Shown in pieces: positions 6,494 to 10,312 of a stretch of 64,000 bases of DNA. The notes below the pieces were generated by a model that was not told the origin of the DNA, searched no databases, and saw only the letters and a program-made list of their open reading frames with translations. Each line of letters begins with the position of its first letter. Within the stretch, counting starts at the first letter, position 1. The stretch is taken from the NCBI GenBank assembly GCA_964504535.1, contig CAZDED010000001.1, positions 37,804 through 101,803 of the forward strand, written 5' to 3'. The DNA comes from an uncultured Gammaproteobacteria bacterium. GTDB lineage: Bacteria; Patescibacteriota; Microgenomatia; Levybacterales; GWA1-39-11. Position numbers and translations under genes: made by a program.

Positions 6494-6499
6494 AAACTA

Positions 6500-6560
6500 A
6501 TTATAGATTATAAACACGAAATCCGAATGTCGAAATTCGAAACAAATTTCAAATCACAAT
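6500..6560. repeat. AT-rich palindromic intergenic repeat (family member R1; motif cgaaatccgaatgtcgaaattcgaaacaaat)
   Basis: Shares a core of about 30 nt with 8750..8790 and, in inverted orientation, with 6908..6953, 8795..8835 and 10030..10150. Confidence 0.7.
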
Positions 6561-6907
6561 TACTCAGACTTCTTAAGTATAGCCCCAAATATATTCATTA
6601 ACTCTGTAGCTTCCTGTAATAATTCTTCCCTTTCCTGACTATAAGCAAGTAATCTTAGCCAAAATCGTGTTTCCTTGGCTTCTTTTCGTGAAATCTTAAT
6701 CCTCATTATGAAATCTTTTTTACTTAGAGAGTCGTTTGCTTCTATATAATTTGCACCAATCGAACCTGATGAGCGTACTAGTTGTTTAATATCATCAATA
6801 GAAGATACTGATTTTGGAATAATCTTAACATACTCGCGAACTTTAGAGGCAAACTGAAAAGTTCTTTCTTCTAAATCATACTGTTTGGAATTTTTAGCTT
6901 CGGACAT
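6560..6907 (-). CDS. four-helix-bundle protein (TIGR02436 / 23S rRNA intervening-sequence protein family)
   Basis: 115 aa; SIGANYIEA and ETRFWL motifs characteristic of this family. Confidence 0.8.
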   Translation of the reverse strand: MSEAKNSKQYDLEERTFQFASKVREYVKIIPKSVSSIDDIKQLVRSSGSIGANYIEANDSLSKKDFIMRIKISRKEAKETRFWLRLLAYSQEREELLQEATELMNIFGAILKKSE

Positions 6908-6953
6908 TGGAGTTTATTTCGTGCTTCGAATTTAGAATTTCGAATTTATGTAA
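6908..6953. repeat. AT-rich palindromic intergenic repeat (R2; tttcgtgcttcgaatttagaatttcgaattt)
   Basis: Inverted version of the R1 core; recurs at 8795..8835. Confidence 0.7.
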
Positions 6954-8735
6954 TTATTGGGAGGCATCTGCTACATCACTTTCTTCGAGCCTGAGTAACC
7001 CCTCGTCAAGCCTTTTTTGATCTAAGAAGTGTGCAATAAATCCTACTGACCTTGAGAGTACAAAGAGTGCATTGAAAAATTCCGCTTGTATAAGTTCCCA
7101 CAACTGCTCGTCACTATATCCCTCTTTTTCAGAAAGATAATCAAGCAATACTGCAGCGATACTACCATCTATATTTAGAATTAAATTCCCCTTCTTCTCC
7201 GTCGTTATCTTTTCAACTTCCATCGCAAATTTGCTAAACCTCTTCTTCTCTAATCTATTTGCGTATTCCATGATTTCACCAACTCTTGGGTCTGGCATAT
7301 CTACTCTATATTTTTTGTGCCCAATCCCCTGTATATAAACTTTCTTACTTGCTGATTCTTCAACAAAAGCGCTTGCACTTTTTCCATCAACAACTCCAGA
7401 GAACCAGTTGCGTGCTGCTTCATTTAAAGCTCCTCCAAATCGTGGACCAATGGTAAGTAACCCTGCAGAAAGAGAGGAAACCAGATCCCGTCCTGCACGA
7501 GCCGATACTATCGTATTTAATGCTCCTGAAACATATGGCCCGTGGTCAACTGATACTCGCAGTATAAAATCCACAAACTCTTCAGTGTCTGGTAACACTA
7601 TCTTTTTCCCTAAGAATAGAGAAGCAGCAATCTTTGCAAATGAATTTTCTTTTGCAAAAGAGAGTAGATCCTCACCCAAAATTTTGACGTCCCCATCAAC
7701 ATCTTTTGAGATACTTGATGAAATAAGTGCATGTTTGCGATCGTCCATATTTTCAATTGTATCATTCGGACTTTCAAAACCAAAATCATCCAAAGTTCCA
7801 ATCAACTGTACAAATTCTGAAAAAGTCTCAGGAACTTTTGCACCCGCTTTTTTGAGAGCTTCCCTTTTTGCTTTTGCTGATTCTTCATTTTTTTCTGCCA
7901 TTGCTTTTGCGTGTCCGAATTGTGGAGGAGTCTCAAATAGATCTGAGATAGTACCTGCAACATAACAGATGACAGGTTTTGTAATATGTCCTACTTCCAA
8001 AAGCTTAGCTAATTTATATTCATCTTCCCCACCCAATTCCCCGTAATACACAATAGCCTTTGTCTCCTCATCCTTCTGTGCGACCATAAGTGCATCGACC
8101 GGCTCGAGTAATGGAAATCTGTCACCACCAAAAGAAAGTGAAAAGCTAACTTTATTGTGCGTATTGTTAACGACATTTATTATTTCGTTTACCATCCCTC
8201 CTGATGCTGACAAAACACAAACTCCACCTTTTGAGAGCAAACCGGATGAAGTAATTTGTTTTGTCGATACTCCACCAATGGCACCGAGCTTTAGAACACC
8301 TGGGATAACAAGACCTACGCTTGAAGGACCAATCAAGGTTACATTTTTATCTTTGGCATATTCAAAAAGATCAATGGAATGCTTTTCAGGAACACCTTCT
8401 GCAAAAATTGTTCCAATTTTCATATTGGGGAATGTATCAATAGCCTCAACCATAGAGGTTAATGCTCTTCTTCCTGAGCTTACATTGAGAACCGTGTTAA
8501 CATCTTTTTTCACGTTTTCAGGAATGACAGACAGAGTAGAGTAGACCGGTAATAGCACTTCCCTCCTTCCGAAGAAAAACCTTACAAATTTTCGTCCTGT
8601 TGCCACGATTCCAACGATTGATGGAGTGGTGTGCCCTATCAAAAAATCATAATCAAGCATGGATTGGATTATCCCTGGATGATTACCTATTACTATTATT
8701 TTCGATTGTGTTTTTCTTAAAAGTTCAATATCCAT
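6954..8735 (-). CDS. aclA: ATP-citrate lyase large subunit (CoA-binding/succinyl-CoA-synthetase-alpha-like domain fused to citrate-synthase-like domain)
   Basis: N-terminal CoA-binding (KIIVIGNHPG), phosphohistidine loop PQFGHAKA (compare ACLY QFGHAGA), C-terminal citrate-synthase-like signature GHKKYRVDMPDPR; size 593 aa typical of bacterial AclA. Confidence 0.8.
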   Translation of the reverse strand: MDIELLRKTQSKIIVIGNHPGIIQSMLDYDFLIGHTTPSIVGIVATGRKFVRFFFGRREVLLPVYSTLSVIPENVKKDVNTVLNVSSGRRALTSMVEAIDTFPNMKIGTIFAEGVPEKHSIDLFEYAKDKNVTLIGPSSVGLVIPGVLKLGAIGGVSTKQITSSGLLSKGGVCVLSASGGMVNEIINVVNNTHNKVSFSLSFGGDRFPLLEPVDALMVAQKDEETKAIVYYGELGGEDEYKLAKLLEVGHITKPVICYVAGTISDLFETPPQFGHAKAMAEKNEESAKAKREALKKAGAKVPETFSEFVQLIGTLDDFGFESPNDTIENMDDRKHALISSSISKDVDGDVKILGEDLLSFAKENSFAKIAASLFLGKKIVLPDTEEFVDFILRVSVDHGPYVSGALNTIVSARAGRDLVSSLSAGLLTIGPRFGGALNEAARNWFSGVVDGKSASAFVEESASKKVYIQGIGHKKYRVDMPDPRVGEIMEYANRLEKKRFSKFAMEVEKITTEKKGNLILNIDGSIAAVLLDYLSEKEGYSDEQLWELIQAEFFNALFVLSRSVGFIAHFLDQKRLDEGLLRLEESDVADASQ

Positions 8736-8739
8736 ATTT

Positions 8740-8835
8740 TGAACTACTAAACTCGAAATCCGAATATCGAAATTCGAAACAAATTAAAAATATCAAATTT
8801 AAAACTAGTTTCGTGCTTCGAATTTAGAATTTCGT
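8740..8835. repeat. composite AT-rich palindromic intergenic repeat (R3; contains both R1-type and R2-type cores)
   Basis: ctcgaaatccgaatatcgaaattcgaaacaaat ... gtttcgtgcttcgaatttagaatttcgtgc. Confidence 0.7.
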
Positions 8836-8837
8836 GC

Positions 8838-10025
8838 TTATCCTACATGCCTCAATGCTGGTTCTACTATGTCTGTCAACACTAACTCCGGTCCGTGAAT
8901 TTCACCTAACAACTCTTCTTTCTCTAAAAAGGTCTTCATCATAGATAACCCTTCTTCCTGATGAGGCCCTCCGCGTCTCACAAAAATTTTCACATTTTGG
9001 GCTCTTAATTTTTCAGATACTTCCCCCAATGCTTTTATTATTCCTTTAAAAGTGATCCTTACATCCGTAAAATTGGCAACTCCACCGGAGATTATTATAG
9101 ATTTATTATGGGATGTAGAACGGAGTAGAGTAGCCAAAATTTGTTTGACGTATAAATACGTCTCTTCCTCAGTTGGACTACCACTGTATTCTCCATAGTT
9201 TGCCAGTTCTTTCCCTTTACCTTTCTGGTATATCTCGTCAGCAGTAACAAGCGATGCTCCTCCACCCGACAGTAATACAAATATTGAGCCATTGGGGTTT
9301 ATGAGCTGAAAACTTAATGCAGCTGGGGTTGTTTCTTTTAACTCCTCGATCGCCTTTTCTTCTTCAGTTTTTTGGACTCTTCCACCTTCCCTAAAGTCAT
9401 TTTTACTCCACACCCCATCTACAAAAAATGATGCCTCACTGTCTACCTCAACTGCTGCATCAAGGAAAAAATATTTTTCTCCCTGACTTACAAGGGGATT
9501 TATTTCTAAAAATGAAAAATAGTAATTATCAAATGCTGTGATTATGCTTTCTAAAGTCTCGACAGAAATCTGAAGAGTTCTTGCAATGTCTTCATACTGA
9601 GCATAATCCGTCAGAACTGAAGTCGTTATAGAATCTTTATTTTCTTCTATGTCTATTCCACCTTTTGTTGCAAAATGCACTCTCTTTCCTTCACGAACGC
9701 GCTCTATAGCCAGATAAAACTCGTCACTACTTTCGTGTTCGAGAAACTCCTCGAGTATGAAATAGGAAAATCCCTTTTCTTTCAATTTTCCAATCTCCTC
9801 CTCAACGTTTTCTTTCGTTACACCTAGTGATATAAGCCCTTTTTTCTTTCTTTGCTTTACCCCCTGGTCAACTTTCAGGACATATTTCTTACCATCCTCC
9901 ATTTGAGATAGGATTTTTTCCAAATACTCTCTTGTCGAGTCTATTGAAATACCACCGTAGGGAACTTCTAAAAAGTCGTAAAGGATTTTCTTTGCACGAA
10001 ACTCTGAAATTTTCTTTCTCGCCAT
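8838..10025 (-). CDS. aclB: ATP-citrate lyase small subunit (ATP-grasp, succinyl-CoA-synthetase-beta-like)
   Basis: Recalled alignment to the N-terminal part of eukaryotic ACLY over most of the length: KKISEFRAKKILYDF (ACLY: KAISEQTGKELLYKF), YFSFLEINPLV, LLSGGGASLVTADEI, ELANYGEYSGSPTEEETY, IISGGVANFTDVRITFKGII, IFVRRGGP. Confidence 0.85.
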   Translation of the reverse strand: MARKKISEFRAKKILYDFLEVPYGGISIDSTREYLEKILSQMEDGKKYVLKVDQGVKQRKKKGLISLGVTKENVEEEIGKLKEKGFSYFILEEFLEHESSDEFYLAIERVREGKRVHFATKGGIDIEENKDSITTSVLTDYAQYEDIARTLQISVETLESIITAFDNYYFSFLEINPLVSQGEKYFFLDAAVEVDSEASFFVDGVWSKNDFREGGRVQKTEEEKAIEELKETTPAALSFQLINPNGSIFVLLSGGGASLVTADEIYQKGKGKELANYGEYSGSPTEEETYLYVKQILATLLRSTSHNKSIIISGGVANFTDVRITFKGIIKALGEVSEKLRAQNVKIFVRRGGPHQEEGLSMMKTFLEKEELLGEIHGPELVLTDIVEPALRHVG

Positions 10026-10027
10026 AT

Positions 10028-10150
10028 ATTTATTATACTAAATTCGAAGCACGAAGCACGAATTTCGAAACAATTCAGAAACTATAATATATCAAATTTC
10101 AAACATCCTGATTTGGGATTTGTTTCGGATTTAGAATTTCGATATTAGAA
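10028..10150. repeat. AT-rich palindromic intergenic repeat (R4; inverted R2-like and R1-like cores)
   Basis: attcgaagcacgaagcacgaatttcgaaac ... atttgtttcggatttagaatttcgatattagaatttcc. Confidence 0.65.
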
Positions 10151-10179
10151 TTTCCTTTGTACTCAAAGGCTATTCTTCT

Positions 10180-10312
10180 TTAGGTACGAAGTTAGATTTC
10201 GCTTTTATTTGCTCTTGGATCTGTACAGGTACTTCCTCGTAGTGAGAAGGTTCCATGTAAGCATTTGCACGACCTTGTGTAAGAGATCTGAGAGTCACTA
10301 ATGAATAAATTG
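10180..10312 (-). pseudogene. orphan duplicate of the fusA 3' end (encodes only the last ~45 aa of EF-G)
   Basis: By-eye alignment with 11209..11340 at roughly 85% nucleotide identity; translation ...[45 protein letters not shown] versus the EF-G C-terminus ...[41 protein letters not shown]; no upstream EF-G domains. Confidence 0.75.

Follow-up and report, generated by a model that had tools for sequence, protein, structure and literature searches.

Hairpins with heptamer arms, one enclosing a four-helix-bundle gene, within the ATP-citrate lyase operon of a Levybacteria bacterium

Introduction

Here, we describe an operon for ATP-citrate lyase (ACL; aclB-aclA) and a set of hairpin-forming repeats within it, both found in a 64,000-nt stretch of contig CAZDED010000001.1 (hereafter, the window) from a bacterium of the Candidate Phyla Radiation (CPR) lineage Levybacteria. 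Our analysis makes it likely that two things of different kinds are combined at this locus: an old two-subunit ACL operon and, superimposed on it, copies of an element with inverted heptamer arms, which resembles both the intervening sequences (IVS) of 23S rRNA and the cyanobacterial repeats called STRR (short tandemly repeated repetitive) and whose full form carries an open reading frame (ORF) for a four-helix-bundle (4HB) protein. A first-pass annotation, made from the sequence of the window, had instead proposed that the ACL and 4HB genes form a horizontally acquired island delimited by repeats, a proposal that our results do not support.

The 4HB protein belongs to PF05635/TIGR02436, a widespread family of small proteins that are usually annotated merely as "four helix bundle protein." ORFs of this kind, under the name 23S_rRNA_IVP, have been recorded in rRNA insertions of CPR bacteria (PMC11270868), and 23S_rRNA_IVP/PF05635 genes have also been found within cas operons and taken as Cas-associated (PMC3936711). 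A full-text literature search returned no paper linking PF05635 genes, rRNA IVS and STRR heptamer hairpins, and a heptamer-hairpin element with 4HB cargo that is conserved across phyla has apparently not been described as such.

Results

Three hairpins within the ACL operon

The ORFs that the first-pass annotation had listed between positions 6494 and 10180 were all recovered on the minus strand with the same boundaries. It had also reported a palindromic repeat at each gene boundary of this block. The repeat family is real and non-random, but its members are not four equal repeats; they are arms of three hairpins. Two of these are empty, namely element B between aclB and aclA (8749–8839, minus strand) and element A between a fusA fragment and aclB (10040–10153, minus strand). 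The third is a full element of 436 nt (6512–6947, minus strand), in which the 4HB gene (6560–6907, minus strand; 115 aa) is enclosed by two 34-nt inverted arms. In the sense orientation, the 5′ arm of the full element, AAATTCGAAATTCTAAATTCGAAGCACGAAATAA (6914–6947), abuts the 4HB start codon, and the 3′ arm is TTGTTTCGAATTTCGACATTCGGATTTCGTGTTT (6512–6545); both fit the alignment of 53 elements described below. On the sense strand of each repeat site, an A/C-rich arm of heptamers (with CGAAATT, CTAAATT, CGAAGCA and CGAAAC in succession) comes first, and a T/G-rich arm imperfectly complementary to it comes next.

Arm patterns of 17–18 nt gave 5–6 matches in the window versus 0.2–0.5 expected, all of them within 6511–10162 except for one match with three mismatches at 45551–45567. 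Three C[GT]AA motifs at 7-nt spacing were matched 14 times, versus 0.14 times in shuffled sequences, and only at the three hairpin sites of the window. By a rough estimate, the chance that three elements would fall in three consecutive intergenic regions if placed randomly is about 0.002. The arms of the full element are 81% complementary (6519–6544 versus 6922–6947) and are paired in its minimum-free-energy fold. For element A, the pairing of 10040–10073 with 10120–10153 was read from the sequence and is also found in the plus-strand fold; its arms belong to repeat families D1 and D3 and form inverted pairs I1–I6 with the arms of the other two elements. The sense-strand RNA of element B folds at −26.4 kcal/mol (z = −4.08) and the opposite strand at −15.8 kcal/mol, and the outer arm of this element provides the aclB stop codon. 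In one relative (L206, see below), the aclA stop codon overlaps the start of an element arm (TAAATTCG).

Two short boxes abut the outer end of a hairpin arm. One, TAGTATAAT, lies just downstream of element A and 7–8 nt before the aclB ATG (10026–10045), and is conserved in the window and in relatives L002 and L004; the other, TATAATCTATAAT, precedes the murB ATG by 6–8 nt (6494–6512). Neither is accompanied by a Shine-Dalgarno sequence, and this arrangement suggests that the aclB and murB mRNAs may be leaderless or near-leaderless. No terminator-type T-run follows the hairpins, and a promoter/terminator scan stayed at background level. An Rfam search of the block at E ≤ 1 returned only spurious miRNA-like matches on the hairpin, and the element has no curated RNA family. 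Integron attC sites were rejected, as the arm consensus lacks GTTRRRY and no integrase is present among the ACL-block ORFs scanned, and XerCD/dif and CIRCE were excluded on sequence after inspection by eye.

The presence of a TIGR02436 gene in the block, claimed in the first-pass annotation, was borne out: the 4HB protein matches both TIGR02436 (E = 1.9e-18; 66.6 bits, cut-off 24) and PF05635 (E = 7.4e-13; 49.1 bits, cut-off 33.8) above the curated cut-offs. Its nearest solved relative is PDB 2rld (E = 8e-12), which has 5 chains, and Xcc0516, a PF05635-type protein, is a pentamer according to work cited in PMC4990558. The protein is 65–70% identical to copies in metagenome-assembled genomes (MAGs) of Planctomycetota and on other metagenome contigs. 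It has no PADLOC or PHROG match, no close relatives were found in the phage records or viral contigs scanned, and inspection by eye upstream of its ORF shows no evident Shine-Dalgarno sequence.

Turnover of the hairpins among relatives

AclA has 2710 homologues, and among the best 120 of them, with identities from 100% down to 60%, the closest named ones all belong to Candidatus Levybacteria. We compared the locus in relatives at 98% (L001), 86% (L002), 81% (L004/5), 76% (L206) and 62% (L207) AclA identity and found that the hairpins have been gained, lost and replaced on a strain-to-genus timescale, repeatedly at the same junctions. At the aclB/aclA junction, the hairpin is of CGAA type in the window, CCAA type in L004/5 and CTAA type in L206; it is missing from L001, L002 and L207, where the genes are separated by 1, 2 and 6 nt, respectively. 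At the aclA–murB site, the 4HB element of the window is matched by a 4HB element in L001 (97%) and L206 (77%), by a 4HB gene with 41% identity and differently flavoured arms in L002, by an arm remnant only in L004/5 and by an unrelated 102-aa ORF in L207. Upstream of aclB, L002 has a TTCCAAG/CTTGGAA-flavoured counterpart of element A, and L001 has none.

At the aclA–murB site, the window and L206 copies of the 4HB protein are 77% identical, close to the values for AclA (76%) and MurB (78%), and 41 of the 44 nt in the 5′ arm region are identical by our own count from the sequences. Thus, the ORF and its arms have long been under constraint. Several traits of miniature inverted-repeat transposable elements (MITEs) are seen here, namely terminal inverted repeats, many copies and presence/absence polymorphism, and the sole full form encodes the 4HB protein, which has no known catalytic motif. 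The outer T...A of the arms, considered as a possible TA target-site duplication, is palindromic and occurs in only about half of the copies, and no such duplication could be defined.

Distribution across phyla and linkage of the ORF to the arms

A degenerate 20-nt arm pattern, searched against one genome per GTDB species (596 Gb), was found in at least 120 genome stretches. Among the matches listed, the taxon labels, which come from MAGs and may reflect mis-binning, include Planctomycetota, Verrucomicrobiota, Desulfobacterota/Syntrophobacteria, Acidobacteriota, Nitrospirota, Omnitrophota, WOR-3, Bacteroidia, several proteobacterial classes and many Patescibacteria, and the GC content of the loci ranges from 34% to 71%. 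Conservation extends into the flanks beyond the searched pattern (consensus ...GTTTTGGTCATTTGAATTTYGGATTT-pattern-GATTTCGGATTT), and at least 86 matches have a complementary partner arm, with palindromic elements counted on both strands. Among the matches listed, the partner lies almost always 30–160 nt upstream, and the hairpins have stabilities of −30 to −90 kcal/mol. Several MAGs gave 3–5 separate pattern matches each, and empty hairpins with the same arm motif were found in 13 IMG/VR stretches of predicted viral contigs (L212–L224; 56–67% GC). The inner, loop-proximal part of many empty hairpins contains TTGGTCA, one of the classical cyanobacterial STRR heptamers (STRR2).

The 4HB gene and the arms are found together as one package well beyond Levybacteria. 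Among the genome-scan matches listed, four loci have a 4HB gene within the loop, including L069 (Gemmataceae), whose protein is 65% identical to that of the window, and L054 (Verrucomicrobiae). When metagenomes were scanned with the 4HB protein of the window, 536 of the 600 pattern-matched stretches among the matches listed encoded 4HB relatives. We took the best 80 of these 536 (58–68% identity; contig GC 26–65%) for a test of the arms, and 77 were testable: by our reading of the arm sequences, heptamer arms stand on both sides of the ORF in about 72 of the 77, although only 42 of the 77 attain a computed alignment score of 40. Besides these metagenome loci, the full-element architecture is found in L001, L206 and the four genome MAG loci.

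These data bear on the possibility that the resemblance among loci is a low-complexity coincidence, with AT-rich repeats produced by independent replication slippage. Tandem heptamers can indeed be expanded by slippage, their copy number differs among Coxiella strains (PMC4990558), and, under uniform composition, about 70 matches to the search pattern are predicted by chance in 596 Gb. However, arm length is constant, the boundary is sharp and both sides have the same consensus; the flanks outside the search pattern are conserved; arms are present in genomes of up to 71% GC; shuffled versions of the window contain 0.14 matches versus the 14 observed; and in about 72 of 77 loci, the arms are linked to an ORF of 58–68% identity. 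Because of this ORF–arm linkage, we regard slippage as effectively refuted.

A second possibility is that the repeats act in cis as regulatory sites of the ACL operon alone, either as operators or as attenuator/terminator hairpins that set the aclB:aclA:murB ratio. In its favour, a hairpin stands at each gene junction of the operon, element B has a significant sense-strand fold (z = −4.08), and the TAGTATAAT box between element A and the aclB ATG is conserved in the window, L002 and L004. Yet the same arms occur at more than 100 unrelated loci of other phyla, beside dnaK, clpP, GNAT and other genes, and the hairpins are missing from the same junctions in the 98%-identical relative. Together with the lack of a terminator T-run and the background level of the promoter/terminator scan, these observations make operon-specific regulation improbable.

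The orientation of the elements is informative about their expression. The ORF in full elements, which occupy intergenic regions, points in the same direction as the upstream neighbour in 49 of 55 cases and as the downstream neighbour in 45 of 54; full elements are therefore presumably transcribed by read-through. Empty elements occupy convergent, divergent and tandem intergenic regions. At three loci of other phyla, L115 (dnaK), L120 (clpP) and L050 (LmbE-like and GNAT), pairs of hairpins flank single housekeeping genes, as they do around the ACL genes. The range of host loci, with fusA, dnaK, clpP, rRNA and RNase P RNA among them, hints that highly transcribed loci are preferred by the elements or tolerate them.

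A third possibility is that the hairpins are not selfish DNA but RNA elements beneficial to the host, such as REP/STRR-like mRNA stabilisers, processing sites or translational couplers (REP, repetitive extragenic palindrome), that would spread by recombination and use the 4HB protein as a cofactor, for example as an RNA chaperone or a modulator of RNase III. The strong sense bias of full elements relative to their neighbours, the clustering of elements near highly expressed genes (fusA, dnaK, clpP) and the retention of ORF and arms at the aclA–murB site over roughly 25% protein divergence are all in line with this idea, and transcript stability or translational coupling has been proposed for STRR sequences (PMC2670836). 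On the other hand, the elements are dispensable, as near-identical relatives lack them at the same junctions; they are patchily distributed across phyla, with discordant protein and host phylogenies; empty elements are also found in convergent and divergent intergenic regions; and the corresponding protein of the Coxiella IVS, S23p, is apparently untranslated (PMC4990558). We thus consider a role in the service of the host unlikely, though less so than operon-specific regulation.

Conservation and pairing of the arms

An anchored alignment of 53 elements (A1) revealed a sharply bounded 34-nt terminal inverted repeat, with AAATnCGAAnnnCGAAnnnCGAAATnCGAAACAA as the sense 5′ arm and TTGTTTCGnATTTCGnnnTTCGnnnTTCGnATTT as the 3′ arm. 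CGAA is invariant at 7-nt intervals, and the ten bases outside the arm show no conservation. The 5′ arm extends to, and often across, the 4HB start codon (...CAAATGACC...). Because empty hairpins keep the complement of this start-codon stretch (GGTCATTTG), we infer that they are internal-deletion derivatives of full elements. With the arms in register, 73% of cells are standard pairs, versus 24–54% with the partner slid. Judged from the sequences, a periodic motif with overall complementarity looks more like an inverted array of protein-binding sites than a helix kept by pairing alone.

The heptamers come in several flavours. CGAAAT is replaced by CTAAAT in five metagenome loci and in the aclB/aclA hairpin of L206, heptamers of CCAA type occur in L002 and L004/5, and a switch in flavour alters all heptamers of both arms together. 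The idea that flavours switch to avoid host restriction sites is unsupported, as L206 carries two flavours.

Plasmid-borne relatives with heptamer arrays

More distant members of PF05635 (35–45% identical) are encoded on plasmids of cultured Anabaena, Nostoc, Dolichospermum, Aulosira, Pseudanabaena, Chlorohelix and Bernardetia. Carriers of such loci include Anabaena cylindrica PCC 7122 (L208) and Nostoc flagelliforme CCNUN1 (L225, on pNFSY06). The genes lie inside operons, including cas2/cas1 (L208, L227), csx2/cas1 (L229), helicase/methylase (L210, L226) and RND adaptor/permease (L230) operons. Inverted arrays of tandem heptamers are present on both flanks at 8 of 10 plasmid loci (seven from cultured cyanobacteria and one from Chloroflexota), with about four to six copies where the arrays are clean, for example (TAATTCG)n ... 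(CGAATTA)n or (AATTCAA)n ... (TTGAATT)n. The lag-7 autocorrelation of these arrays is 0.63–1.0; controls have a mean of 0.39 and a 95th percentile of 0.60. Heptamer type follows protein clade in four pairs of loci with a common type, where protein identity is 77–85% within the pair, compared to 33–65% between types; L210 and L229 are an exception, with proteins that are 71% identical and heptamers that are written differently. PF05635 genes that are flanked by heptamer arms and split defence and transport operons probably explain the earlier reports of "cas-associated" 23S_rRNA_IVP.

Identity and role of the ATP-citrate lyase

The operon in which the hairpins lie is, as judged from domain content and alignments, that of a genuine and complete two-subunit ATP-citrate lyase, with the citryl-CoA lyase (CCL) module fused to the alpha subunit. 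The product of aclB (8838–10025, minus strand; 395 aa), which the first-pass annotation had matched to the succinyl-CoA synthetase (SCS) beta-like N-terminal part of ACLY, contains PF16114 (Citrate_bind, E = 5.8e-56) and PF24948 (Citrate_synth_N ATP-grasp, E = 1.1e-30) over residues 2–392. Against PDB, its best matches are human ACLY and Methanosaeta ACLY-A (E about 1e-58), with the N-terminal halves of ACLY at about 5e-59, compared to only 3.5e-14 for the large subunit of citryl-CoA synthetase (CCS; 6hxq_B). The product of aclA (6954–8735, minus strand; 593 aa), which had been read as the CoA-binding/phosphohistidine and citrate-synthase-like modules of AclA, contains PF00549 (Ligase_CoA), PF13607 (Succ_CoA_lig) and then a C-terminal PF00285 domain (Citrate_synt; residues 359–582, E = 5.3e-19). 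Over its full length, it aligns with human ACLY residues 496–1091 (E = 2.7e-107) and with Methanosaeta ACLY-B (E = 1.5e-105); its match to the Chlorobium subunit is weaker (E = 3e-69), and that to CCS far weaker (6hxq_A, E = 1.3e-22). Its phosphohistidine loop QFGHAKA aligns to QFGHAGA of human ACLY, and its lyase-module motifs GIGHK and LILNIDG to GIGHR and LILNVDG. It also aligns to structures of the ACLY CCL module (6hxk, 6hxn), and NCBIfam citryl-CoA lyase models match it at 1.4e-21, under their cut-offs.

Comparison with the AclA/AclB, CCS and SCS families upholds both assignments. An ordinary SCS was rejected, as the NCBIfam SCS alpha and beta models score 117–123 and about 60 bits against cut-offs of 336–375 and a lyase domain is present. 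A CCS/CCL system of the Hydrogenobacter type was likewise rejected: the lyase module is fused to AclA, there is no separate CCL polypeptide and CCS subunits score far lower. Domain order is the same as in the ACL of Chlorobium limicola and Methanosaeta (Methanothrix) and in human ACLY (PDB 6hxj, 6hxi, 6hxh); the split point is that of other two-subunit enzymes, with an AclB of about 395 aa and an AclA of about 593 aa; and conservation extends to the GHAxA-loop histidine and to GIGH and NxDG, the citrate-synthase-like motifs. Of the Methanosaeta/eukaryote type (E about 1e-105) and the Chlorobium type (3e-69), the window enzyme is nearer to the former, and its carrier, unlike those hosts, is a small-genome CPR bacterium.

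Other genes of the tricarboxylic acid (TCA) cycle were sought among about 25 window ORFs scanned, and none was found; synteny accounts for several more ORFs. As no other TCA gene was seen in the 64 kb examined, a role in a reductive TCA cycle is unlikely, and catabolic or anaplerotic cleavage of citrate seems likelier by inference. AclAB would then cleave scavenged citrate to acetyl-CoA and oxaloacetate. The first-pass annotation considered ACL unexpected beside CPR-like housekeeping genes; it is less surprising in light of passing mentions of CPR ACL in the literature, namely the enrichment of aclAB in Saccharimonadia (PMC12577380) and the mis-annotation of citrate-cleavage enzymes of CPR (bioRxiv 10.1101/2022.10.25.513756).

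Inheritance of the operon

The ACL operon, on sequence grounds, is an old and vertically inherited part of this Levybacteria lineage, located between fusA and murB, and not a recent acquisition. The order fusA-aclB-aclA-(small gene)-murB is kept in relatives at 98, 86, 81, 76 and 62% AclA identity. murB (5528–6493, minus strand), identified by Pfam/NCBIfam matches, is the conserved downstream neighbour in all relatives compared, and the genes past it are conserved as well, where contigs extend far enough; fusA (11209–13338, minus strand; EF-G) is the conserved upstream neighbour in L002–L005, L206 and L207. The composition of the coding sequence is equally ordinary: the tetranucleotide distance of the ACL coding sequence (0.158) is average for the window (0.164 ± 0.024), and the ACL genes have GC contents like those of fusA, murB and the rest of the window, with GC at third codon positions (GC3) of 0.30 and 0.33, compared to 0.28 for fusA and 0.32 for murB. 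Taken as a whole, the block ranks 6 of 61 in tetranucleotide composition, which is slightly unusual; as the ACL coding sequence lies at the window mean, this excess most likely comes from the repeat-rich non-coding parts.

At the right edge of the block, the first-pass annotation had noticed a fusA fragment, which is indeed present: the last ~38 codons and stop of fusA are duplicated at 10171–10286 (minus strand), with 87% identity over 116 nt to the 3′ end of full-length fusA at 11210–11325. Between the two fusA 3′ ends lies an insert of ~920 bp (10287–11209, plus strand) that holds two overlapping plus-strand ORFs of 186 aa (10332–10892) and 103 aa (10889–11200). These orphan ORFs have no Pfam, NCBIfam, PHROG or PADLOC match, and the 186-aa ORF has only a self-match among 5.8 billion proteins. 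The position downstream of fusA is occupied by 124 nt in L002 and by other unrelated genes in L004/5, L206 and L207, which makes this region a variable hotspot. The insert resembles a small integrating module that carries its own replacement for the gene end.

The alternative, in which the ACL and 4HB genes form a recently acquired island with borders marked by the palindromic repeats and the fusA fragment, can be weighed against these results. The distribution of ACL in bacteria is patchy, the repeats are confined to this block within the 64-kb window, and a duplicated fusA 3′ end at the right edge is as expected at integration sites. However, gene order is shared by relatives from 98% to 62% AclA identity, composition and GC3 are ordinary, and the fusA duplication brackets the separate 920-bp orphan insert, with the ACL genes outside it. 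The repeats do not delimit the block either: they lie inside it, are present or absent site by site in relatives independently of the block, and are found in hundreds of unrelated loci of other phyla. There is no integrase or transposase in the Pfam/NCBIfam scans of six ORFs, from murB to the two orphan ORFs. The first-pass annotation had itself named synteny of the block in close relatives, with identical composition, as grounds for refuting the island, and the conserved synteny and the coding composition, which matches the window, agree with that outcome. The island is not supported, and we consider it very improbable.

Other features of the window

The scanned ORFs of the window (about 25) are mostly housekeeping genes, such as alaS, ftsK, RNase J, PNPase, infB and nusA. 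No tRNA gene was found in the 64-kb window by ARAGORN, and no Rfam family, rRNA included, reached its gathering score across it. Amid the housekeeping genes are a 565-aa MATCAP-like protein (13855–15552), a 754-aa protein with a Baseplate_J-like domain (34139–36403) and a Fic-domain protein (49083–50315). A stretch of ~1 kb at 61980–62900 has a GC content of 51%, versus 39% for the window, and is a stronger compositional outlier than the ACL block. It contains an ORF for a stand-alone RNA polymerase alpha C-terminal domain (62058–62390; PF03118, E = 3.6e-16) and a lipoprotein-like ORF with no family match (62441–62881), and it is preceded by a 24-bp near-perfect hairpin at 61980–62031, where there is no Rfam match.

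Discussion

Our results favour an interpretation in which the hairpins of this operon are copies of a dispersed element that comes in a full, 4HB-encoding form and an empty form. By analogy, the window elements would be the same kind of object as ORF-containing 23S IVS and STRR hairpins, but situated in mRNA operons. Full elements are probably transcribed by read-through from co-oriented neighbours. The two arms may then pair in the read-through transcript to give a long bulged stem, which RNase III would cut as it does in rRNA IVS and which would also bury the 4HB start codon in many copies. The 4HB protein, which is a homopentamer in solved relatives, could bind the 4–5 heptamers of its own arms, and this interaction may maintain or spread both full and empty copies, with host recombination, an RNA intermediate, or phage or plasmid vectors as candidate modes of spread.

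Insertions of this type are found in rRNA at 23S helix 9, 25 or 45. The IVS of Coxiella burnetii is 428 nt long, has a stem of terminal inverted repeats in which RNase III cuts, and, immediately upstream of its S23p ORF, contains GACAGAT heptamers in two to four tandem copies (PMC4990558). The likeness of our full element to the IVS of Coxiella and Leptospira (PMC4990558) is extensive: similar length (436 versus 428 nt), a stem of terminal inverted repeats, heptamers in the arm upstream of the ORF, a PF05635/S23p ORF in the sense orientation, short forms that lack the ORF, and a sporadic distribution that suggests horizontal transfer. The Shine-Dalgarno sequence, poor in Coxiella, is not evident by eye here. 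In contrast to IVS, the window element lies between protein genes of an operon and not in a 23S helix, its heptamer is CGAAATY rather than GACAGAT, its arm sequence is itself conserved across many phyla, and its cleavage by RNase III is only presumed.

Similarities to other repeat systems are more partial. STRR sequences consist of tandemly repeated 7-bp units, which fold into hairpins between genes of an operon (such as hupS-hupL) and have no function assigned to them (PMC2670836), and they also occur inside the gene for RNase P RNA, according to a 1997 study by Vioque as cited in PMC2858038. The elements described here share the tandem 7-bp repeats and the intergenic hairpins within operons; however, STRR sequences were described for filamentous cyanobacteria and are not tied to any protein, whereas the present arrays occur in CPR and many other phyla. 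REPIN-RAYT systems and MITEs also combine many short intergenic palindromes with a coding full form that has the same repeats, and they also show presence/absence polymorphism. Hairpin RNAs of the Correia elements of Neisseria can be processed by RNase III. The present elements differ from REPIN-RAYT systems and MITEs in that they have no transposase of a known family, their only cargo being a 115-aa helical bundle; in place of a single REP palindrome, their arms consist of periodic arrays of heptamers; their distribution is cross-phylum rather than species-specific; and no target-site duplication is definable. Avd, the accessory protein found in diversity-generating retroelements, forms a pentamer that binds nucleic acids and acts together with a specific RNA. 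Its four-helix-bundle fold family is shared with the PF05635 proteins, its relatives (PMC10053308), but no reverse transcriptase or template/variable repeats were seen here.

Several observations weigh against the interpretation that we favour. With respect to mobility, which is deduced only from presence/absence and phylogenetic discordance, neither a transposase nor a recombinase is present and a target-site duplication cannot be defined. Moreover, the last six codons of aclB differ where the hairpin is present and absent (LRHVG* in the window at 8838–8860, IKHIS* in L001 at 1270–1290), and the event that separates the window from L001 is therefore no clean cut-and-paste insertion. With respect to the helix, pairing is mostly lacking at the three variable bases that separate CGAA blocks, and covariation over the 53 elements is 0.143, compared to 0.123 in column shuffles. 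As this signal is only marginally above that of the shuffles, we rejected the notion that covariation proves the helix, and an RNA-helix function is not demonstrated. Hairpin stability shows no consistent strand bias, with 35 of 72 empty elements favouring the sense strand, although this test of strand asymmetry is uninformative because the element is near-palindromic. With respect to recognition of the heptamers by the protein, CTAA-flavoured elements form no protein clade and share no specificity residue in the comparison of CGAAAT and CTAAAT elements of the cross-phylum family, which weakens the idea that the protein reads the heptamer. Some single matches of the genome scan may be due to chance, as an estimate that assumes uniform composition gives about 70 in 596 Gb, and some MAGs behind the taxon labels may be mis-binned. 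No 16S/23S rRNA motifs were found in about 200 related loci, so there is no direct bridge to rRNA intervening sequences. Finally, the direction and role proposed for the ACL draw on only 64 kb of the genome.

A broader and decidedly more tentative possibility is that all PF05635 genes are partners of one widespread class of heptamer hairpins, such that ORF-containing IVS of 23S and 16S rRNA, STRR sequences and the hairpins of CPR, Planctomycetes and Desulfobacterota would form a single system. In such a system, each protomer of the protein would read one heptamer of an array of 4–5 units, lineage-specific pairs of protein and heptamer would co-evolve, and hairpins that lack the ORF would be non-autonomous derivatives kept or moved in trans. 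We consider this extension doubtful at present.

For annotation, our findings imply that such hairpins should not be taken as borders of islands or as operon-specific regulators. For CPR biology, they indicate that ACL is a stable, lineage-wide trait of Levybacteria rather than an accident of transfer, which bears on the supply of acetyl-CoA and oxaloacetate in these reduced organisms. For the PF05635 family, the packaging of its genes between inverted heptamer arrays, with one package conserved from CPR to Planctomycetota and hairpins without the ORF in operons, would unify scattered observations on the IVS of rRNA, the STRR repeats of cyanobacteria and operon-splitting 4HB genes. Cultured and genetically tractable carriers, including Nostoc, Anabaena and Dolichospermum, are now available for addressing the relationship between the protein and the repeats.

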